Part shown: piece by piece, positions 7,268 to 39,048 of the stretch
Layout: each line of letters begins with the position of its first letter
Position numbering within the stretch: position 1 is the first letter of the stretch
Source: Pseudomonadota bacterium
GTDB lineage: Bacteria > Pseudomonadota > Alphaproteobacteria > Rickettsiales > RGZB01
Direction of reading: 5' to 3'
DNA: 64,000 nucleotides
NCBI GenBank assembly: GCA_010031735.1
Contig: RGZB01000002.1
Coordinates: 2,580-66,579, forward strand
Notes under the pieces: generated by a model
Told to the model about the DNA's origin: nothing
The model's input: the letters and a program-made list of their open reading frames with translations, nothing else
Database searches by the model: none
Translations under genes and position numbers: made by a program

Positions 7268-7282
7268 TTAACGTTAAATTAA
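7268..7282. promoter_or_regulatory. Perfect TTAA-N7-TTAA (CtrA-type) box
   Basis: TTAACGTTAAATTAA(C). It lies in the divergent metW/ORFan intergenic region, 56 nt upstream of the GTG at 7339. Confidence 0.55.
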
Positions 7283-9536: not shown

Positions 9537-12149
9537 CTACGCGTCGGAGTCTGGGTTCTTCTTTTTACGTGTCGTTTTCTTCGCTGACGCCTTGCGTGCC
9601 GGCTTCTTCTTGCCGCCGCCCTCTTTGGCCTGGATGAGAGCGATCGCCTCTTCAAGCGTGAAGGTTTCGGTAGACGCATCCTTCGGGAGCGTCGCGTTGG
9701 TCTTTCCGTGTTTCACATACGGTCCGTATTTACCGGAATAGAGCCCGATATCCTCGCCCGAATCCGGATGCTTGCCGAGAATTTTGAGCGGCGCCGCACT
9801 ACCGCGACCGCCCTTAGCGCCCCGTGCACCGGCACGGGCTGCCGCTTCCGCGATCACCGTGACCGCACGGTTGATGCCGATCGTCAGCACATCATCGCCG
9901 GCTTTGATCGAAGTGTATTTACCGTCATGGAACAGGTACGGACCGAAACGGCCGACACCGGCCTTGATCATCTCACCCGTCTCCGGATGGAGGCCCACTT
10001 CGCGCGGTAATTGCAGGAGCGAGAGCGCCTCCTCGAGCGTCACCGTATCGGGTTTTAAATGCTTGAGCAGCGGCGCACGTTTCGGCTTCTTCTCTTCACC
10101 GAGCTGTACGTAGAAACCATACGGGCCTTGGCGCACGGAGACTTCCTGGCCATCCGGATGATTGCCGAGCACACGCGGATAGCTGCCGCCGACATTCTGT
10201 ACCGGCGTACCGTCTTCATTCTTGTTGCCGATCTCGACATCCAGCTGGCGGGTGTAGCGGCATTCCGGATAGTTCGAGCAACCGATGAAGGCACCGAATT
10301 TACCGACCTTCAACCCAAGCACGCCTTCACCGCAGGTCGGGCATTTGCGGCGCTCTTCCAGGCTACCCTTGCCCGGGAATAAGAAGTCGGCGAGCGTTTG
10401 ATTGAGTGCGTCGATCACGTCGGTGATTTTCAAATCCTTTGCACCTGCGACGTTGTTCGAAAAATCACCCCAGAACGCACGAAGCACCTGTTTCCAATCT
10501 GCTTCGCCAGCAGAGATACGGTCTAGATCTTCTTCCAGATTCGCCGTGAAATCGTATTCGACGTACTTGGTAAAGAATTTGGCCAAGAAGCTTGTGACCA
10601 CGCGGCCGCGGGGTTCTGGCACGAAACGTTTTTTATCGAGCTTCACATACTCACGGTCCTGCAGCACGGCGATGATGCTCGCATAGGTCGACGGGCGGCC
10701 GATGCCGAGCTCTTCCATGCGCTTGACCAAACTTGCTTCCGAGAAACGCGGCGGCGGTTCGGTGAAATGCTGCGCCGGCGTTACTTCCATTTGTTTCAGC
10801 GGCTCGCCTTCATTAAGCGGCGGCAAGATGCGGCCTTCATCGTCGTCATCATCCGGATCGTCGCGGTCTTCGTTATAGAGCGAGAAGAAGCCCGGGAATT
10901 TGATGGTGGACCCGCTCGCACGCAGCATGTTCTTATCTGCGGCGATATCGACCGAGACGACATCCAGCACCGCGCTTTCCATCTGGCTTGCGACCATGCG
11001 CTTCCAGATGAGGTCGTAGAGCGCACGCTGGTCCTCATCAAGATATTTCGCCACACTCGCCGGATCGCGGCGCACATCCGTCGGGCGGATCGCTTCATGC
11101 GCTTCCTGCGCGTTCGCGGCTTTCGACTGGTACATACGCGGGGATTTCGGAACGAAGCTCGTGCCGAAACGCTTCTCGATCAGGTCGCGCGTCGCCATCA
11201 CTGCTTCGGGCGCGACTTCGACACCGTCGGTACGCATGTAGGTGATTAAACCCACGGTTTCCTTGCCGATCTCGACACCTTCGTACAGACGCTGCGCGAG
11301 CTGCATCGTGCGCTTGGCACCGAAGCCGAGCTTGCGGAAGGCTTCCTGTTGCAGGGTAGAGGTAGTGAATGGCGCATACGGATTCCTGCGCGCCTGCTTC
11401 TTCTCGACGGAAGCGACTTTATACGACGCCGAACGGAGCGCGGTTGCGACCGCCTCCGCCTTCGCTTCGTTGTTTAAACTGAATTTCTCGAGCTTCTCGC
11501 CGTTCACATGGGTGAGACGCGCCGTGAAATGTTCTTTGCTGCTCTTCTCGAGCGCAACTTTGATATCCCAGTATTCTTCCGCGATGAATTTTTCGATCTC
11601 TTCCTCCCGGTCGCAGATCAGGCGGAGTGCGACCGACTGCACACGCCCTGCCGAACGCGAGCCCGGCAGCTTGCGCCAGAGAACGGGCGATAGATTGAAA
11701 CCGACGAGATAATCAAGGGCGCGGCGTGCCTGCTGCGCATTCACCAGATCCATATCGATCGCACGTGGTGCGGCCATCGCCGCCTCGACCGCCGTGCGGG
11801 TGATGGAGTTGAACACCACGCGTTCGATCTTGATGTCTTTGGGTAAGGCTTTTTTCTCGCGCAGCGCTTCCACCAGGTGCCATGAAATGGCTTCCCCTTC
11901 ACGGTCCGGGTCCGTCGCCAGGATGAGGGAATCTGCCTTTTTCACCGCATCGGCGATCGCTTTCATATTCTTGGAAGCATCATCCGGCACTTCATAGTGC
12001 ATGAGGAAGTCTTTATCGGGCTCGACCGATCCATCCGCCGAAGGAAGATCGCGGACATGGCCGAAGGAAGCCAGCACTTTATAGTCTGAACCGAGGTATT
12101 TATTAATGGTTTTACTTTTTGCCGGTGATTCGACGATAACTACGCGCAT
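9537..12149 (-). CDS. topA: DNA topoisomerase I
   Basis: 870-aa ORF. It has the Toprim N-terminus MRVVIVESPAKSKTINKYLG, then ...ATDPDREGEAISWH, the active-site region ITYMRTDG, C-terminal Zn-ribbon CPTCG/C..YPEC repeats and a lysine-rich tail. Confidence 0.96.
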   Translation of the reverse strand: MRVVIVESPAKSKTINKYLGSDYKVLASFGHVRDLPSADGSVEPDKDFLMHYEVPDDASKNMKAIADAVKKADSLILATDPDREGEAISWHLVEALREKKALPKDIKIERVVFNSITRTAVEAAMAAPRAIDMDLVNAQQARRALDYLVGFNLSPVLWRKLPGSRSAGRVQSVALRLICDREEEIEKFIAEEYWDIKVALEKSSKEHFTARLTHVNGEKLEKFSLNNEAKAEAVATALRSASYKVASVEKKQARRNPYAPFTTSTLQQEAFRKLGFGAKRTMQLAQRLYEGVEIGKETVGLITYMRTDGVEVAPEAVMATRDLIEKRFGTSFVPKSPRMYQSKAANAQEAHEAIRPTDVRRDPASVAKYLDEDQRALYDLIWKRMVASQMESAVLDVVSVDIAADKNMLRASGSTIKFPGFFSLYNEDRDDPDDDDDEGRILPPLNEGEPLKQMEVTPAQHFTEPPPRFSEASLVKRMEELGIGRPSTYASIIAVLQDREYVKLDKKRFVPEPRGRVVTSFLAKFFTKYVEYDFTANLEEDLDRISAGEADWKQVLRAFWGDFSNNVAGAKDLKITDVIDALNQTLADFLFPGKGSLEERRKCPTCGEGVLGLKVGKFGAFIGCSNYPECRYTRQLDVEIGNKNEDGTPVQNVGGSYPRVLGNHPDGQEVSVRQGPYGFYVQLGEEKKPKRAPLLKHLKPDTVTLEEALSLLQLPREVGLHPETGEMIKAGVGRFGPYLFHDGKYTSIKAGDDVLTIGINRAVTVIAEAAARAGARGAKGGRGSAAPLKILGKHPDSGEDIGLYSGKYGPYVKHGKTNATLPKDASTETFTLEEAIALIQAKEGGGKKKPARKASAKKTTRKKKNPDSDA

Positions 12150-21191: not shown

Positions 21192-22274
21192 TTATCGCGC
21201 GCGCATCGCACAGGCAGAAGCGGCGGCAGGGCAGGGCTTACCCCCGCAAGCATTCGCACACGTAGCGCGGCAGTCCTTTACACTTTGTACCAGGTGGGCA
21301 AGCGCGCCGATGAACGCTTTATCCGCGCCCAAGGCGGGTACGCGGAAGTAGTGTGCTGCCCCGTTCGCCTCGGCAAGCTCACGGTATTCGATATCGAGCT
21401 CGACCAGGGTTTCGCTGTGTTCGGAAACAAATGCGATCGGCACCACGACGATCGGCCGCTTTTCTTCGGCGGCACGGATGATCTCGGTGTCCGTCGCAGG
21501 TCCGATCCATTCCAGACGACCCACTTTGCTTTGATACGTCACGCGGTGATCAAGCCCCTTGATCGAAAGCGCGTCTACAACGGACTGCACGGTTTGTTCG
21601 ACCTGCCACTGGTACGGATCGCCGGCTTCGATTACCTTTTTCGGCAGGCCATGCGCCGAAAACAGGATGCGCGGGTTGCCGTAGCGCCGCGCCTTTTGGT
21701 ACACCGTGCGGATCGTTTCCGCATGGGCGTGCACGAAGGCCTTATCCGCATAATAACAACAGAGGCGCGTGGTCGGCACGGCAAGAGCGAGCTCGGCTGC
21801 AGCCTTATCCCATGCATCAAACGACGAACCCGTCGTGGTGGTCGAGAACTGGGGATAGAGCGGCAAAAGAACCACCCTGTCCGGTTGGTAGGCCTTCACC
21901 GCCTCGGCCGCTTCTTTCACAAACGGGTGCCAATAACGCATGCCGATGAACACCTCGAAACCGGCGCCCAATTTCTTCTGAAGCGCGGAGGCCTGTTTCT
22001 CGGTCAGCGGAAGAATGGGAGAGCCTCCACCCAGATGCGCATAGATGGCTTGCGCCTTTTTATCGCGCCCGCTTGAAATCAGTTTTGCGAGCATATACCG
22101 TAAGGGATTGGGTAGCGTAATGATCGCGGGGTCGTTGAATAAATTGAATAAAAAAGGCCTTACGCTTGAAGGCGAGTCGGGACCACCGAGATTGAAAAGC
22201 ACGACTGCGGTTTTACCTGAAGCCTTTACCGCTCGCATCGTTGGCGGTGGTGTTTTCTTCTGCTTCCTAGCCAC
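21192..22274 (-). CDS. hemH: Ferrochelatase
   Basis: 360-aa ORF. AVVLFNLGGPDSPSSVRPFLFNLFNDP, LLPLYPQFSTTTTGS, FSAHGLP and AFVSEHSETLVELD are ferrochelatase signatures. The start may be the internal ATG at 22238. Confidence 0.93.
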   Translation of the reverse strand: MARKQKKTPPPTMRAVKASGKTAVVLFNLGGPDSPSSVRPFLFNLFNDPAIITLPNPLRYMLAKLISSGRDKKAQAIYAHLGGGSPILPLTEKQASALQKKLGAGFEVFIGMRYWHPFVKEAAEAVKAYQPDRVVLLPLYPQFSTTTTGSSFDAWDKAAAELALAVPTTRLCCYYADKAFVHAHAETIRTVYQKARRYGNPRILFSAHGLPKKVIEAGDPYQWQVEQTVQSVVDALSIKGLDHRVTYQSKVGRLEWIGPATDTEIIRAAEEKRPIVVVPIAFVSEHSETLVELDIEYRELAEANGAAHYFRVPALGADKAFIGALAHLVQSVKDCRATCANACGGKPCPAAASACAMRAR

Positions 22275-23301
22275 GGATCGCCTTGATCATCGCTTCGACG
22301 TTCTCGATCGGCGTAGCGGGTAAAATGCCATGCCCCAGATTGAACACATGGGGGCCTTTCTTGAAATCCGTGAGTACTTTCACTGTTTCTTTGGCCACCG
22401 TTTTTTTATCGGTGAGCAAAATACACGGATCGAGATTGCCCTGCACCGGCAGGCGTGTCTGCAGCTTCTCCGCCGCCCATTGGCGTGGCACGGTGTAGTC
22501 GAGCCCGACCGCATCCGGTGCTACTTCTTTCACGAAATCCTTGTAGTATAATCCGGCACCGCGGGGGAAGCCGATGAACGGAACCTGCGGATAGATTTTT
22601 TTCACACGTTTCCTGATTTCCTTTGCGGGTTTTATCACCCATTCTTCAAAGGATTCTTCGGGTAAGACACCCGCCCATGAATCAAATAACTGCACCGCTT
22701 CGGCTCCAGCATCGATCTGCGCGATCAGATAGTCGCTTGTGACATCCACTAATAATTGCATCAGTTTCGAAAACAGTGCTTTATCCCCAAACATCATTTG
22801 TTTGGTATGCTCGTATTGCTTACTGGTTTTACCTTCGATCATATAGGTCGCGACCGTCCACGGGGCACCTGCAAATCCAATAAGCGCCGTATGCTTTGGT
22901 AAGCGGGATTTGGTCAGTTCGAGTGCTTCATACACCGGATTCAGATGCGCATGGAATCTCTTCGCTGACAGTGATTCGATGGCTTTCCTGGTGCGTACCG
23001 GATCTAGCACGGGACCTGTTTTTTCCAGATACTCCAGTTTCATCCCCAGCGCATGCGGTATCACCAGAATATCGGAGAATATAATCGCGGCATCGAAACC
23101 AAAGCGATCAATCGGCTGGAGTGTGACTTCGGATGCCAATTTCGGATTGTAACACAGATCGAGAAACTCACCTGCTTTTGCACGTACCTTACGGTATTCC
23201 GGCAAATATCTCCCGGCCTGACGCATCATCCATACCGGCGGTGTTTTCACTTTCTCACCTGCCAGCACTTTTAAAAACGGTTTATTCGAAGCTGTTTTCA
23301 T
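22267..23301 (-). CDS. hemE: Uroporphyrinogen decarboxylase
   Basis: The ORF runs to 23325. I prefer the ATG at 23301 because AAAGG lies 5 nt upstream. PPVWMMRQAGRYLPEYR, ...FDAAIIFSDILV... and ...NLGHGILP are HemE signatures. Confidence 0.94.
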   Translation of the reverse strand: MKTASNKPFLKVLAGEKVKTPPVWMMRQAGRYLPEYRKVRAKAGEFLDLCYNPKLASEVTLQPIDRFGFDAAIIFSDILVIPHALGMKLEYLEKTGPVLDPVRTRKAIESLSAKRFHAHLNPVYEALELTKSRLPKHTALIGFAGAPWTVATYMIEGKTSKQYEHTKQMMFGDKALFSKLMQLLVDVTSDYLIAQIDAGAEAVQLFDSWAGVLPEESFEEWVIKPAKEIRKRVKKIYPQVPFIGFPRGAGLYYKDFVKEVAPDAVGLDYTVPRQWAAEKLQTRLPVQGNLDPCILLTDKKTVAKETVKVLTDFKKGPHVFNLGHGILPATPIENVEAMIKAIRG

Positions 23302-23558
23302 GTGCCTTTTTCTTTCGTCAGGCAATCAACCATAAAACAGTGAGAGCGGCTACTACTAAATCAAATAAAAATAATTAATCTTTAAGACTAAGAGAGATTA
23401 TATTTGTAGATAGTCATTCCGAAAACGGTAATTCTTTTATCTTTCACAGTATGTCTGTAGGAAAAAGCCTGTGTATATTTTCTTGGGATGATTTGTAATA
23501 GAAATCCATATCATTGAAAAGCCGATACTAAATCCTGCAGGAAAATCCTACACAAGCC

Positions 23559-23581
23559 TGTGGACAACTATCTTATCCACC
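23559..23581. promoter_or_regulatory. Pair of one-mismatch DnaA boxes
   Basis: TGTGGACAA (reverse complement TTGTCCACA) and TTATCCACC, 5 nt apart, in inverted orientation. Confidence 0.55.
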
Positions 23582-23664
23582 GCTTTCACAGGTAGGGGAA
23601 AAAAGCGTGCACTTGGGGAAAAGGTATGTGACAAGTTTCGTAAACTATGGAATAACTATAACGC

Positions 23665-23691
23665 TGTGGAAAACCAATGCTTTTATCCACA
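23665..23691. promoter_or_regulatory. Pair of DnaA boxes including a perfect consensus TTATCCACA
   Basis: TGTGGAAAA (reverse complement TTTTCCACA) at 23665-23673 and TTATCCACA at 23683-23691. Confidence 0.65.
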
Positions 23692-23755
23692 GTATTTAAA
23701 TAAAGATACACAGCGAATCCACAACAACCTGTGTATAAAAAACCGCATAAACGAC

Positions 23756-24586
23756 ATGGAAAAGAAGCAATTTCACGTACATCTGGTATCAGACTCAACA
23801 GGTGAGACCGTGAGCAGCACCGCACGTTCGGTCTTTGCCCTTTTCGAAGACACGGAGCCGCAAGAACACCTCTGGTCACTTGTCCGTACCAAAGGACAGA
23901 TGGAACGCGTGGTCGAAGAGATCCGCGATAATCCCGGTATCGTACTCTATACTGTTGTAGAGGAAAAACTGCAGCAGATACTAAAAGACAGTTGCCGCGA
24001 GATGGGTATTCCCTGCGTTTCCGTTTTGACGCATGTGATCCAAGAGGTCGCTTCGTACCTTGGCATCAAGGAAAAAGCGAAAGCCGGCAAGCAGCACCAA
24101 CTCACCGAAGAATATTTCTCGCGCGTGGAAGCGATCAACTTCGCGCTCGAACATGATGATGGCATGAATACGGAAAATCTGGAACAAGCGGATATCGTGC
24201 TTGTCGGCCCGTCGCGCACGTCGAAAACGCCGACCTGCGTCTATCTCTCCTATCGCGGCTATTATGTCGCGAACGTGCCGCTGGTGAAAGACTGCCCGCT
24301 TCCGGACAACCTGTTCACGCTCAAAAAACCACTGGTGGTTGGGCTTATCATCAGCCCTGAACGTCTGGTGCTGATCCGCAAATCGCGTCTCGTCTCACTC
24401 AATGAAACACGCGAGACGGATTATGTGGATATGGCAGTGATCAAAGACGAGGTCGCCGATGCGCGTAAGATGTATGCCAAATACGAATGGCCGGTGATCG
24501 ATGTCACGCGCCGCTCAATCGAGGAGACGGTCGCGAACATTATCAATCTATACAATGAACGTAAGGGGAAAAAAGAGGGCGTATGA
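23756..24586 (+). CDS. Pyruvate,phosphate dikinase / PEP synthase regulatory protein-like (DUF299, RP001 homologue)
   Basis: The ORF track starts at 23666, which would run through the DnaA boxes. I prefer the ATG at 23756 (MEKKQFHVHLVSDSTGETV...). ADIVLVGPSRTSKTPTCVYLSYRGYYVANVPLV is the P-loop signature of the family. Confidence 0.85.
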   Translation: MEKKQFHVHLVSDSTGETVSSTARSVFALFEDTEPQEHLWSLVRTKGQMERVVEEIRDNPGIVLYTVVEEKLQQILKDSCREMGIPCVSVLTHVIQEVASYLGIKEKAKAGKQHQLTEEYFSRVEAINFALEHDDGMNTENLEQADIVLVGPSRTSKTPTCVYLSYRGYYVANVPLVKDCPLPDNLFTLKKPLVVGLIISPERLVLIRKSRLVSLNETRETDYVDMAVIKDEVADARKMYAKYEWPVIDVTRRSIEETVANIINLYNERKGKKEGV

Positions 24587-25458
24587 AAAAAGCCGCCGTC
24601 ATCGGCTCCCCCATCAGCCACTCGCTCTCGCCGCGCATCCATGGATTCTGGCTCGAGCAATACGGCATCGAAGGCAGCTATGATGCCGTTGAAGTGAAAC
24701 CAGAGCACCTGCAATCCTTCCTGCGCGCGCTCCCCGAGCAAGGATATGCCGGTGTCAACATCACCTTGCCGCATAAAGAAGAGGCAATGCGGTACGTCGA
24801 TGAAATCGAGCCGCTCTCGCGGCTACTCGGAGCGGTAAATACCGTCGTCGTGAAAGATGGCAAGCTGCTTGCCAGCAATACGGACCTGGGCGGCTTCTTC
24901 GAAAACATACACCAGCATGCACCGCTATTTCCCATGCATGGGGGTAAGGCAGTGGTGATCGGTGCCGGCGGCGCGGCGCGTGCGATCGTGATGGGTCTCC
25001 TCATATACGGTGTGCCGCAAGTGGTGATCGTGAACCGCACGGAAGAGCGCGCAGGCGCCATCAAACAAAGTATCGCCGCTGCGGCAAGCGACGGGCGTTT
25101 ATCCCGCATCGATTGGGAGAAGCTCGCCGAAAAAATCGTGATCAAGCCGTGGGCAGAGCGTGAATCGGTGCTCGTCGATGCGAACCTGCTCGTCAACACC
25201 ACGTCGCTTGGTATGAAAAACCAGCCGCCACTTGAGTTATCGCTCAAGAATCTCCCGATCACCGCGATGGTGACAGACATCGTCTACAACCCGCTCGAGA
25301 CCGAATTATTAAAGGCCGCGCGTACGCGCGGGAATACCGTTGTGGATGGGCTCGGGATGTTATTGCACCAGGCCGTGCCTGGCTTCGAGGCATGGTTTGG
25401 TGTCAAGCCCGAGGTGACCGAGAAACTCCGCATCCACGTGCTGAACGGCTATATATGA
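24583..25458 (+). CDS. aroE: Shikimate dehydrogenase
   Basis: 291-aa ORF. AVIGSPISHSLSPRIHGFW, GVNITLPHKE, GAVNT, NTD..G and VIGAGGAARA are AroE motifs. Confidence 0.92.
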   Translation: MKKAAVIGSPISHSLSPRIHGFWLEQYGIEGSYDAVEVKPEHLQSFLRALPEQGYAGVNITLPHKEEAMRYVDEIEPLSRLLGAVNTVVVKDGKLLASNTDLGGFFENIHQHAPLFPMHGGKAVVIGAGGAARAIVMGLLIYGVPQVVIVNRTEERAGAIKQSIAAAASDGRLSRIDWEKLAEKIVIKPWAERESVLVDANLLVNTTSLGMKNQPPLELSLKNLPITAMVTDIVYNPLETELLKAARTRGNTVVDGLGMLLHQAVPGFEAWFGVKPEVTEKLRIHVLNGYI

Positions 25459-26051
25459 TCACGATCGGGCTCACAGGGAATATCGGTACGGGCAAAAGCT
25501 TCACCGCGGCGATATTCGCCGAACTGGGGATCCCGGTGTTCAATGCCGATGATGCGGTGCATGCGCTCCTCAAAAAAGGCGGCGCCGGCGTGAAGCCGGT
25601 CGCAAAACTATTTCCAGACGTGGTGAAAGAAGGTGCGGTAGACCGAAAAGCTTTAGGCGCCATCGTGTTCAAAAACCCCACGAAGCGCAAGGCGCTCGAA
25701 ACCATCCTGCACCCACTGGTGCGTAAGGCAGAGGAAAAAGCGATCCGCGCTGCGCGGCTTAAAGGTAAACATATGATCGTGCTCGATATCCCGCTGCTAT
25801 TCGAGGCGGGTGGTTGGCGCAGGGTCGATGTCATTGTCGTGGTGAAGTCCTCCCCTTTCATCCAGAAGCGCCGTGTGCTCGCGCGAAAAGGTATGACCTT
25901 GAAACGCTTCCATGAGGTGCTCGAGACCCAATGGCCGAGCTATAAAAAAGAAAAGGGTGCGGACTTCGTGATCGACACGGGCGCGAGCAAGCGCGTGATC
26001 AAGGCGCAGATAAAAAAACTTATCGCTCATATGAAAGCGAAATATGTTTAA
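25455..26051 (+). CDS. coaE: Dephospho-CoA kinase
   Basis: The ATG at 25455 overlaps the aroE stop (ATATGA). MITIGLTGNIGTGKS (P-loop), ...FNADD...IVLDIPLLFE. The ORF-track start at 25392 is an upstream in-frame extension inside aroE. Confidence 0.9.
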   Translation: MITIGLTGNIGTGKSFTAAIFAELGIPVFNADDAVHALLKKGGAGVKPVAKLFPDVVKEGAVDRKALGAIVFKNPTKRKALETILHPLVRKAEEKAIRAARLKGKHMIVLDIPLLFEAGGWRRVDVIVVVKSSPFIQKRRVLARKGMTLKRFHEVLETQWPSYKKEKGADFVIDTGASKRVIKAQIKKLIAHMKAKYV

Positions 26052-27255
26052 AGACGGCATCACACTCAAAGAGCGTATCCCAGCGGAAGTGGTGACGATC
26101 GACATGGGCGATCAAACTCTGGAATGCTCTATGTTTCTGACCCAACAACTGCGTCCGGCAAAAGGTAAGCCGGAAAAGGTTGTGGGACATGAGATGGGCT
26201 ACGTATGGTTACTACATGCACATAGAGGTGATGAGAACACGATACCGGTGGCAGACGATGTCTATCTTATCCGAGCACTTGGATCGCGGCTTATCACCGC
26301 GCAGCGTGTTTTCAGATACTTAAGCGATGCGGCGACAGATATCGTTATCAATACCGATAGGGCACTCGATTACGGTGCGATCGACCTGGATGTGCATGTT
26401 GATACGTCCGTGCACATGGCGATGCTGGAGCGGTGCATGCCGAAGGTGAAGAATTCAACCTACAGTGCGGCAAGCCAGCAGATGCTCAAATGGAAACCCA
26501 TTGATCCGCGTGAGCACCAGCGTTACGTCTCTTCAGTGTTCCCAGATGCACAGAATCGTGCAAAAGTCATATTAAAAGGCGTGGTGCGCAGTCTAGATAA
26601 GGCAGAAAATCTCTGCGCAGAATCCATCCATGGGGATTTGAAGGATTGTATGTGGCGTATCCTGCAGGGACGGGGCAACAAGCACGCGATACCAGAACAT
26701 GCGCCCCATGACCCAGAAGGGCCGGAAGATGCTGAGAAGTATCTCGTTATGCACCGGAAGGGACTGAAGATCATCTTAAGGGATCTGGATAAACATCCAC
26801 TGATCAGTGCACTCGCCGCACTCAAGGCGCGAACGAGCGAGATCATAGAAAGCTTTGAAAAAATCGACGAGTTGGATCAGGATGTGCGCGCACAAATGCG
26901 TAGGCACCGACGCGCACTAGATACAGACGGCATGGCCTCGCATCTTGCAGGTGTACAACAGAAGCGGAGCCAAGGACTGAAGCGTGAAGCATATGATTTG
27001 ATCGTCTCTCTTACCACAGATGCGGTAAATCTTGAAGGGACGCTTGCCAGAGCGTATGAACTGCCTTACGTTCCTTTTACACCACCGGATACGGAGCGCA
27101 TGGATTATGGCGTTCGTAGAGCAGAGCACGGCGGGAAACTCGTGGTGGATTATCTGAAAGAGATATCTGCAGGATGTCTCTCTGCAGCGATGGTGCTATA
27201 CGATCAATTGGGGCCTGATTTGCCCCCCACAACCCCGCTTGGAGGCGGACGATGA
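26044..27255 (+). CDS. Hypothetical protein (ORFan) embedded between coaE and dnaQ
   Basis: 403-aa ORF. Its ATG overlaps the coaE stop by 8 nt (ATGTTTAA), and its stop overlaps the dnaQ ATG (ATGA). I recognise no family motif. Confidence 0.62.
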   Translation: MFKDGITLKERIPAEVVTIDMGDQTLECSMFLTQQLRPAKGKPEKVVGHEMGYVWLLHAHRGDENTIPVADDVYLIRALGSRLITAQRVFRYLSDAATDIVINTDRALDYGAIDLDVHVDTSVHMAMLERCMPKVKNSTYSAASQQMLKWKPIDPREHQRYVSSVFPDAQNRAKVILKGVVRSLDKAENLCAESIHGDLKDCMWRILQGRGNKHAIPEHAPHDPEGPEDAEKYLVMHRKGLKIILRDLDKHPLISALAALKARTSEIIESFEKIDELDQDVRAQMRRHRRALDTDGMASHLAGVQQKRSQGLKREAYDLIVSLTTDAVNLEGTLARAYELPYVPFTPPDTERMDYGVRRAEHGGKLVVDYLKEISAGCLSAAMVLYDQLGPDLPPTTPLGGGR

Positions 27256-27926
27256 GAGAAATAGCCCTCGATACCGAAACCACAGGATTAGACCCGCGCT
27301 CCGGCCACAAGATGATCGAGATCGGCTGCGTGGAGATGCACGGAAAAATCAAGACCGGGAAATTCTTCCATTGCTATTTGAATCCGGGCCGCGAGGTGCC
27401 GCTCGAGGCAACCGCCGTGCATGGCATCAAGACCGAGGATCTGTTGGATAAACCGACCTTCCTCGAGAAGGCGGATGAATTCCTCGCCTTCATCGGCGAC
27501 GCACCGCTCGTGATCCATAATGCGGCGTTCGATATGAAATTCATCAACCACGAACTGAAAAGCATCGGTAAAGCCGAACTGCCGATGCATACGGTGGTGG
27601 ATACGTTACTCATCGCCCGCGGCAAGTTCCCCGGCGCACCGGCAAGCCTGGACGCCCTCTGCAAGCGCTTCAATATCGATCTGTCGTCGCGCACCAAACA
27701 CGGCGCCCTCCTCGATGCGGGACTCCTTGCCGATATCTATCTGGAGCTGATGGGCGGAAGCCAGCAGGGCCTGAATCTCGCACCCGAAAATAAATCGACC
27801 GCGGATGCGGTAAACCAAGCGATGGCTGCGGTACTGGCACCCCGGACATACACCGTACCCGAAGACGAGCGTGCGACACACGAAGCGTTCCTGAAGCGCG
27901 TTAAAAACCCGCTCTGGACGGCGTAG
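27252..27926 (+). CDS. dnaQ: DNA polymerase III epsilon subunit (3'-5' exonuclease)
   Basis: 224-aa ORF. Exo I is REIALDTETTGLDP, Exo II is LVIHNAAFDMKFINHE, and Exo III is HGALLDAGLLADIYLEL. Confidence 0.93.
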   Translation: MREIALDTETTGLDPRSGHKMIEIGCVEMHGKIKTGKFFHCYLNPGREVPLEATAVHGIKTEDLLDKPTFLEKADEFLAFIGDAPLVIHNAAFDMKFINHELKSIGKAELPMHTVVDTLLIARGKFPGAPASLDALCKRFNIDLSSRTKHGALLDAGLLADIYLELMGGSQQGLNLAPENKSTADAVNQAMAAVLAPRTYTVPEDERATHEAFLKRVKNPLWTA

Positions 27927-30159: not shown

Positions 30160-30421
30160 GTTTTTAAGGCTTAAATCTATTTGACAAGGCCCATAGGTGC
30201 TGGTAGGAAAGCCTTGTCAGGCCGGTTTCGCCTGAATCTTAAGACCTCGTTCAAGCAGGTTCTGATTTCCCTCCCTCGTTCGTAGTACGATCTGAATACA
30301 CACACGCGGGGCAAGGTTTCACAAACGCTTGTACGGCAAGTCACAAATACCCGCCTTTCTTTCTCGAAAGCACCTAAGCGGGCCCATTCCCAACCCTTAT
30401 CTAAAGGCTTTAGTTTTTTAT

Positions 30422-32050
<1,629 letters not shown>

Positions 32051-33866: not shown

Positions 33867-33910
33867 GGTATTCTCCCCTATTTCCTGCCTAGAGGCTAAC
33901 ACATGGCTGC

Positions 33911-33925
33911 TTAATAAGTCGTTAA
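33911..33925. promoter_or_regulatory. Perfect TTAA-N7-TTAA (CtrA-type) box
   Basis: TTAATAAGTCGTTAA, in the AT-rich divergent RTX/MCP intergenic region. It is 44 nt upstream of the RTX ATG (33866) and 193 nt upstream of the MCP start. Confidence 0.55.
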
Positions 33926-34118
33926 TTTATTAATAATCGTCTAAAATTTGAAATAAATTACTAATATCAGCTGTTTCCTAACCTAGCGCATTATGCATGT
34001 GGCTTTTTATGCACGGCTGTGGACGATTTATCTTAACCACATAAAAAAGAAGGGTTTTAAATTTTGTAGCCTATCGGATTGATGATAGCATCATCCTATC
34101 CATATCTAAGATCATGGG

Positions 34119-38076: not shown

Positions 38077-39048
<972 letters not shown>

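Follow-up and report, generated by a model that had tools for sequence, protein, structure and literature searches.

A candidate replication origin between hemE and a DUF299 gene in an uncultured alphaproteobacterium

Introduction

Does the 454-nt intergenic gap that separates hemE from a DUF299 gene in an uncultured alphaproteobacterium serve as the replication origin of its chromosome? The question arises at positions 23302-23755 of a 64,000-nt stretch of DNA (positions 2,580 to 66,579 of contig RGZB01000002.1, assembly GCA_010031735.1; hereafter, the window, to which all coordinates refer), where a preliminary description made from the letters alone had placed a chromosomal origin. We consider it very likely that the entire gap is the DnaA-dependent origin (oriC) of the main chromosome and that it represents the type with hemE and DUF299 flanks that was originally mapped in Caulobacter. 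The cluster of DnaA boxes, the switch in GC skew, the least stable duplex of the window and the conserved synteny all support that earlier claim, and the tests that could be made at the scale of the window came out as it had predicted.

In Caulobacter crescentus, the origin, called Cori, has been mapped between hemE and the duf299 gene (CCNA_00001), and it comprises an AT-rich region, seven DnaA boxes whose affinity is low or moderate, five CtrA and five GANTC sites, and a single site for the integration host factor, IHF (PMC6393856). Alphaproteobacterial origins with the same flanks are predicted by means of four published criteria, after Brassinga et al. (PMC1914354), and the Rickettsia origin has been placed at the same hemE-linked position (PMC1914354, PMC6393856). 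The neighbourhood of the gap matches both the mapped Caulobacter origin and the Rickettsia placement, as the preliminary description had pointed out. CtrA sites are treated in the literature as a variable feature (PMC1914354, PMC2877005): no CtrA boxes are found in the origins of Ehrlichia ruminantium and of one Wolbachia strain (PMC1914354), and the CtrA of B. abortus does not bind the origin (PMC2877005).

DnaA boxes in the gap

The gap contains one perfect DnaA box, four boxes with one mismatch and four with two, that is, the clustering of DnaA sites by which these origins are predicted (PMC1914354). The perfect box, TTATCCACA (23683-23691, plus strand), lies 73 nt upstream of the DUF299 start and is the sole perfect one in the 64 kb. 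The boxes with one mismatch are TTGTCCACA (23559-23567, minus strand), which is the left member of an inverted pair; TTATCCACC (23573-23581, plus strand), which is followed by the conserved motif TTTCACA; TTTTCCACA (23665-23673, minus strand), which is the left member of a conserved inverted pair and lies 9 bp from the perfect box; and TTATACACA (23730-23738, minus strand), 26 nt upstream of the DUF299 start. All five, together with the weaker GAATCCACA (23715-23723, plus strand, two mismatches), which overlaps the only GANTC site of the gap, had been listed before and were found again exactly where they had been described. To these we add three boxes with two mismatches, all of them on the minus strand: CTATCTACA (23405-23413), at the edge of the AT-rich core and facing it, ATATACACA (23470-23478) and TTTTCCCCA (23614-23622).

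The density of these sites exceeds what chance would give. When the AT-rich gap itself was shuffled with its dinucleotides preserved (n=5,000), boxes with at most one mismatch numbered 0.15 on average and 3 at most, and none of the 5,000 shuffles reached the 5 that are observed. These 5 are taken from a total of 23 in the window, of whose length the gap makes up 0.7%. Additionally, the window has 15 intergenic regions of 200 nt or more, and the gap alone among them has more than one such box. That no other intergenic region hold a comparable number of sites is also expected of an origin of this type (PMC1914354), and within the 64 kb, for regions of this size, the expectation agrees with the counts.

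Strand asymmetry around the gap

An origin should be accompanied by a change in strand composition, and a minimum of the cumulative GC skew near 23.5 kb had been proposed as a check on the assignment. Within the window, the raw cumulative skew does have its minimum at 23-25 kb. Since a bias in gene orientation might be mistaken for skew, a regression was run on 48 genes, with coding strand and side of the gap as predictors, giving plus-strand GC skew = -0.002 + 0.002 x coding strand + 0.0345 x side; the skew is therefore governed by the side of the gap and is independent of the coding strand. Genes to the left of the gap have mean skews of -0.034 (plus strand) and -0.039 (minus strand), and those to the right of +0.035 and +0.030, respectively. 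The best switch point across the whole window falls at 23.0-24.0 kb (F of about 19 on 1 and 45 degrees of freedom), with none of 5,000 permutations reaching the observed value. The skew is negative to the left and positive to the right, which is the sign of an origin and not of a terminus, and the switch that characterises origins of the hemE/COG1806 type is, in this local test of 64 kb, located at the gap.

Oriented oligomers change polarity at the same place. The counts of GNAGGG on the plus and minus strands are 15 and 26 to the left of the gap and 49 and 29 to its right (p = 0.007), and those of GGTGCCG are 1 and 10 to the left and 17 and 4 to the right. The E. coli octamer of the FtsK-orienting polar sequences (KOPS) is found 1/1 times to the left and 6/1 times to the right, copies too few for a test. 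Gene orientation itself follows the pattern only in part. The two flanking genes diverge from the gap, hemE on the minus strand and the DUF299 gene on the plus strand, so that both are transcribed away from it, and to the right 21 of 29 genes are on the plus strand and 8 on the minus strand; there, the earlier claim of transcription leading away from the gap is borne out, but on the left it does not extend beyond the three nearest genes (11 minus and 8 plus, of 19).

The AT-rich core

The gap has a GC content of 36%, compared with about 55% for the 64-kb window, and it falls to 17-30% across 23342-23441; an AT content above the genome average and an AT-rich unwinding region are, again, what is expected of these origins (PMC1914354). 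At the hemE-proximal side, the 51 bp at 23354-23404 form the least stable duplex of that length in the 64 kb, with -50.4 kcal/mol against a mean of -74.2, and the least stable 81-bp stretch of the window begins at 23363. The AT-rich stretch described earlier at about 23355-23420 coincides with these minima. We refer to 23354-23404 as the AT-rich core, a candidate DNA-unwinding element that would act in the opening of the duplex.

In many bacteria, among them Bacillus subtilis, unwinding has been attributed to a basal unwinding system (BUS), for which the search rule asks for a DnaA box with at most two mismatches, a spacer of 0-16 bp and, on the correct strand, three or more NAN trios running into the unwinding region (PMC8287927). 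Our scan was strand-aware, and its orientation rule was derived from the sequence of E. coli oriC. The minus-strand box at 23405 formally satisfies this rule, as it stands at the edge of the core, faces it and is followed by a spacer of 10 or 13 nt and by 3-4 NAN trios that run into the core. However, the box has two mismatches and only two of the trios are of the GAT/AAT type, a count that 7% of the shuffled gaps also reach, and the rule as a whole is satisfied by 52% of them, so that it does not set the gap apart from shuffled sequence.

Flanking genes and conservation in relatives

The identity of both boundaries, and the order hemE / gap / RP001 homologue, aroE, coaE and dnaQ given in the preliminary description, are borne out by Pfam assignments. 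On the left, hemE (22267-23301, minus strand; uroporphyrinogen decarboxylase) matches PF01208 (URO-D, E = 9e-125) over residues 5-343 of the 344 amino acids read from the ATG at 23301, and its relatives align from residue 1. On the right, the gene at 23756-24586 (plus strand) codes for a DUF299/PpsR-like kinase-pyrophosphorylase (COG1806, a homologue of RP001 and CC0001) that matches PF03618 (Kinase-PPPase, E = 3e-92) and NCBIfam NF003742 (PRK05339), and homologues of 266-282 amino acids give full coverage from the ATG at 23756. The gap is intergenic and adjacent to both genes, at the location beside hemE and/or the COG1806 gene where such origins are sought (PMC1914354).

Close relatives were obtained through exact look-ups of DUF299 homologues, which gave independent contigs whose DUF299 proteins are 100, 92, 73, 73, 67, 66 and 64% identical; by comparison, a hemE scan of a genome collection returned relatives at no more than 54% identity, and a metagenome scan with DUF299 returned about 50%. 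The arrangement hemE / gap / DUF299 is kept in all of the relatives that span both sides, and most of them keep the order hemJ-hemH-hemE / DUF299-aroE-coaE-dnaQ-secB. Seven independent relatives retain an AT-rich gap here, and the gaps (DUF299 64-92% identical) have 23-40% GC. Six of the seven gaps of the clade contain 4-8 DnaA boxes with at most one mismatch, equivalent to 8-17 per kb, where the remainder of each locus has 0.3-0.8 per kb, and the seventh, from L061, has one such box only. No CtrA box was found in any of the seven. A switch from negative to positive skew is also present in L026, L027, L061 and L064, the four relatives in which the gene order is intact and the sequence extends beyond 3 kb to either side of the gap.

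In an alignment of five sequences, most of the gap has diverged, and the invariant columns are located mainly on the boxes and on box-like motifs. For instance, 7 of the 9 columns of the box at 23573 are invariant, and the adjoining TTTCACA adds five more; in L027, this position is taken by two boxes that abut. The weak box at 23614 corresponds in position to the one-mismatch box TTTTCCACA in L026. The inverted pair TGTGGAAAA-N9-TTATCCACA (23665/23683) recurs in L025 with unchanged spacing and with no mismatch in either box, and a perfect or one-mismatch box lies 63-83 nt upstream of the DUF299 start in the relatives. Additionally, a box comparable to the one at 23730 is found in L026 and L027, at a distance of 18-25 nt upstream of that start.

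An unbiased k-mer test across the seven gaps of the clade, with a listing threshold of 5 of 7, leads to the same sites, as the most over-shared k-mers are box fragments: ATCCACA is present in all seven (null mean 0.44) and GTGGATAA in six (null mean 0.11). Two variants that belong to weak boxes, GTGTATAA (equivalent to TTATACAC) in the box at 23470 and TCCCCA in the box at 23614, are each shared by five gaps, with null means of 0.26 and 0.74, respectively. The conservation of boxes in a gap that has otherwise diverged points to ongoing selection, as judged from these alignments.

The edges of the core present a further pattern. The motif CTACTACTA (23349-23357) and the inverted TAGATAG (23407-23413) bracket the AT-rich core, and a CTACT motif to its left with TAGTAG to its right is seen in L026, L027 and L064, as well as in the Rhodobacteraceae loci L003 and L005. 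These motifs resemble DnaA-trio repeats on opposite strands. The CTACTACTA run is equivalent to three 3'-GAT-5' on the minus strand, and the 16 nt next to it on the correct side contain no box. The motifs are not significantly shared, since CTACTA/TAGTAG stayed below the threshold of five in the k-mer test and is present, by eye, in about 4 of the 7 gaps. One rather doubtful reading is that they make up an element, particular to this lineage, that serves loading on the two strands.

Discussion

Several observations weigh against the assignment of the origin to this gap. Only 64 kb of the replicon are visible, so a stronger cluster of boxes or the global minimum of the skew could lie elsewhere, for example beside dnaA, which is not among the genes of the window. 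The amplitude of the skew is modest, with a local dip at 32-35 kb, and no switch is seen in L063, whose right side, however, is rearranged. Furthermore, two of the classic elements of Cori are lacking: the perfect TTAA-N7-TTAA is absent from the gap, and so, in a scan with the consensus only, is any match to the IHF sequence WATCAANNNNTTR with at most one mismatch, CtrA and IHF sites being among the features used to predict these origins (PMC1914354). Finally, a scan for sigma-70 consensus promoters, made without alphaproteobacterial promoter variants, found none at 23200-23850.

The same DnaA boxes could be read as a regulatory device, either a DnaA-controlled promoter for hemE and DUF299 or a titration site similar to datA or DARS, with the origin located elsewhere, for instance next to dnaA. 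Three boxes do lie less than 100 nt from the DUF299 start (26, 73 and 91 nt upstream), which makes an effect on transcription likely, and dnaA and its surroundings are outside the window. Nevertheless, regulation alone leaves unexplained that the strand-corrected skew switch and the flip in oligomer polarity both fall on the gap, which also holds the least stable duplex of the window and occupies the locus of the mapped Caulobacter origin (PMC6393856), and we regard a cluster with no role in initiation as improbable. The roles of promoter and origin are not mutually exclusive; the box-rich right half of the gap would overlap the DUF299 promoter and probably influences the transcription of that gene too.

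A different objection is that the locus could be an ancestral origin that has ceased to fire and survives as a relic, or that the assembly could have joined regions of opposite skew. It is true that metagenome bins can contain chimeric contigs and that origins have moved in some lineages, as in Wolbachia, where hemE and the COG1806 gene are apart (PMC1914354). However, the same order from hemJ to secB is found in independent assemblies from other samples, the boxes have been conserved though the rest of the gap diverged, and no relic would keep up a skew switch to the present day, which makes either version very improbable. Hardly credible, in turn, is the origin of a secondary replicon, such as a chromid or a megaplasmid. 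The contig, of about 70 kb, does come from a metagenome bin, but the window carries the single-copy housekeeping genes topA, rho, dnaQ, secB, guaB, hemE, hemH, hemJ, mdh, sucABCD and lpdA, no repABC-type or plasmid replication genes were found among the open reading frames (ORFs) scanned, which reach 52.4 kb, and the synteny is that of main-chromosome origins (PMC1914354).

We consequently favour a main-chromosome origin at 23302-23755, and from its features we infer the binding of DnaA, an order of assembly, a site of unwinding and firing in vivo. Within the DUF299-proximal half (23559-23738), DnaA would bind the perfect box (23683) together with the four that have one mismatch (23559, 23573, 23665 and 23730). 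ATP-DnaA would then occupy the weaker boxes in the leftward direction (23614, 23470 and 23405), and the resulting oligomer would open the AT-rich core at about 23354-23404, beside the hemE promoter region, from where two forks would depart in opposite directions. As there is neither a perfect CtrA site nor an IHF consensus site, CtrA probably does not silence this origin directly.

The assignment provides an origin annotation for an uncultured alphaproteobacterium and fixes the replichore orientation of the contig, and the position of the origin allows growth rates to be estimated from sequencing coverage (peak-to-trough ratio). The lineage is a distant one. Compared with every other lineage that was found, its conserved proteins reach identities of no more than about 68-73%, with the exception of the small contig L025 (DUF299 92%). 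The locus also adds a data point on the variable control of origins by CtrA, and our understanding of replication initiation is left unchanged.

CtrA boxes and other signals

The preliminary description had remarked that the putative origin lacks a perfect TTAA-N7-TTAA despite many elsewhere, and nine of them are indeed located in the rest of the window, at 7268, 12258, 14388, 19419, 33911, 36248, 41091, 43303 and 55327. This number compares with 0.42 expected, and 300 block shuffles gave no more than 3. Every one of the nine is intergenic and at most 57 nt from a start codon, and several precede ORFs without a family, a gene for a methyl-accepting chemotaxis protein (MCP), a FIST-domain gene and an RTX gene. 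Such a distribution suggests a large CtrA regulon near the putative origin. Inside the gap, there is a CtrA-like site with one mismatch, ATAATTAATCTTTAA at 23371, but it is found within the core, at 17% GC, and could easily be due to chance.

Among the confirmed hemE/DUF299 gaps, the six with a CtrA box hold 0-1 consensus-like DnaA boxes, and the sixteen without it hold about 3.6 on average (L015 and L029-L060 against the window, L002-L018, L025-L027, L061, L063 and L064), a comparison that is confounded by GC content and shared ancestry. In several of the high-GC relatives, the CtrA box of the gap is the only one in a locus of 20 kb. An evolutionary trade-off between the strength of DnaA boxes and silencing by CtrA would fit the lower number of consensus boxes where a CtrA box is present. 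As a tentative and rather doubtful extension, in this deep lineage CtrA might run a large regulon while the origin has escaped direct control by CtrA and IHF and relies on DnaA boxes of consensus strength.

Regarding other signals, Rfam gave nothing in the gap at gathering thresholds, and a consensus scan found no terminator at 23200-23850. A noncoding RNA or riboswitch in the gap was considered and rejected, since a permissive scan gave only a chance-level match to Hatchet, with 18 bits of the 51 required.

Neighbouring genes

To the right of the DUF299 gene, the origin-proximal operon (24583-27926, plus strand) comprises, according to Pfam, aroE (24583-25458), coaE (25392-26051), an orphan reading frame that we call ORF403 (26044-27255) and dnaQ (27252-27926). 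Past dnaQ there are secB, on the minus strand, and then guaB and rho, and upstream of hemE, on the minus strand, hemH and hemJ. A maf gene is absent between the DUF299 gene and aroE, as had been claimed, because the stop of the former overlaps the start of the latter; Caulobacter has maf at that place, according to the preliminary description.

The additional 403-aa frame between coaE and dnaQ reported in the preliminary description is present, and it is the only unusual item at the locus. ORF403 (403 codons, plus strand) overlaps both of its neighbours and is missing from every relative with adjacent coaE and dnaQ, where the order is aroE-coaE-dnaQ. It shows coding periodicity in its own frame along its full length, together with a codon-usage score near the lowest in the window and a GC content at third codon positions of 0.52, versus 0.61-0.72 in the neighbouring genes. 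No family was found for it in Pfam, NCBIfam or PADLOC, the only PHROG matches are two weak ones (E = 0.017 and 0.036), and a search of 5.8 billion proteins returned no homologue. An exhaustive comparison with 1.84 billion representatives gave a single match, a protein of 168 aa that is 100% identical to the C-terminal part of ORF403 itself. The AlphaFold model made from the single sequence is of low confidence (mean predicted local distance difference test score of 49), with a helical C-terminal half. ORF403 is, in short, a lineage-specific orphan inserted in the origin-proximal operon.

Other genes of the window bear on the position of the organism and on the history of the locus. The best match of TopA is 68% identical, and the best named ones do not exceed 65% (Rickettsiales, Hyphomicrobiales, Alphaproteobacteria bins and Caenispirillum); as the matches are mostly alphaproteobacterial and none is close, the organism is a deep alphaproteobacterium. 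Three proteins of Tautonia (Planctomycetota), with 61-62% identity, are also among the best matches of topA (9537-12149, minus strand), and they may derive from horizontal transfer of a topA of the alphaproteobacterial type. Two genes that lie to the right of the gap on the plus strand in the window, rho (30329-32050) and mdh (38101-39048), are found to its left on the minus strand in L027 (1-2826), and rho likewise in L064 (5358-6869); they have thus changed replichore and are still co-oriented with forks leaving the gap. The rho reading frame has 573 codons from its first TTG and its Rho_N domain starts at residue 159, compared with 474-503 aa for Rho in the relatives, so either the N-terminus of the protein is extended considerably or translation truly begins at a later codon.

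The intergenic region at 33903-34118, between the RTX-repeat gene and the MCP gene, is the second most AT-rich and the second least stable of the window (33% GC). It contains one CtrA box and four DnaA-like boxes with at most two mismatches, and it coincides with the dip in skew mentioned above. It is most likely a divergent promoter region.

Comparison with known origins

The oriC of E. coli combines strong and weak DnaA boxes of 9 nt beside an AT-rich unwinding element (PMC10325909), and the gap described here is similar in this respect. It differs from that origin in its genomic neighbourhood, and it has neither GATC/SeqA features nor an IHF consensus site.

The predicted hemE-linked origins of Rickettsiales and the origin of Brucella lack control by CtrA. 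They have been reported with an IHF site, and many of them have lost the DUF299 flank (PMC1914354), whereas here both flanks are kept and CtrA boxes are dense elsewhere in the window. All share an AT-rich gap flanked by hemE, in which DnaA boxes are present and CtrA boxes are few or absent (PMC1914354, PMC2877005). The Rhodobacteraceae loci that we compared also have a hemE/DUF299 gap with DnaA boxes and without a CtrA box. As hemE-linked origins free of CtrA had already been reported, the lack of CtrA sites is a known variation and not the mark of a new kind of origin.

With respect to Cori, the differences concern mostly the regulatory sites and the strength of the boxes. The gap has no perfect CtrA site, no IHF consensus (at most one mismatch) and one GANTC site, compared with five, one and five in Cori, and it has a consensus box and four boxes with one mismatch instead of boxes of low or moderate affinity. 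Additionally, the DUF299 gene is not followed by maf, and an orphan frame stands between coaE and dnaQ. By contrast, the general plan is the same, with divergent hemE and DUF299 flanks, aroE, coaE and dnaQ downstream, several DnaA boxes and, towards hemE, an AT-rich region (PMC6393856, PMC1914354). The likeness extends to a GANTC site that overlaps a weak box and to the transcription starts of both flanking genes, which must lie inside the origin.

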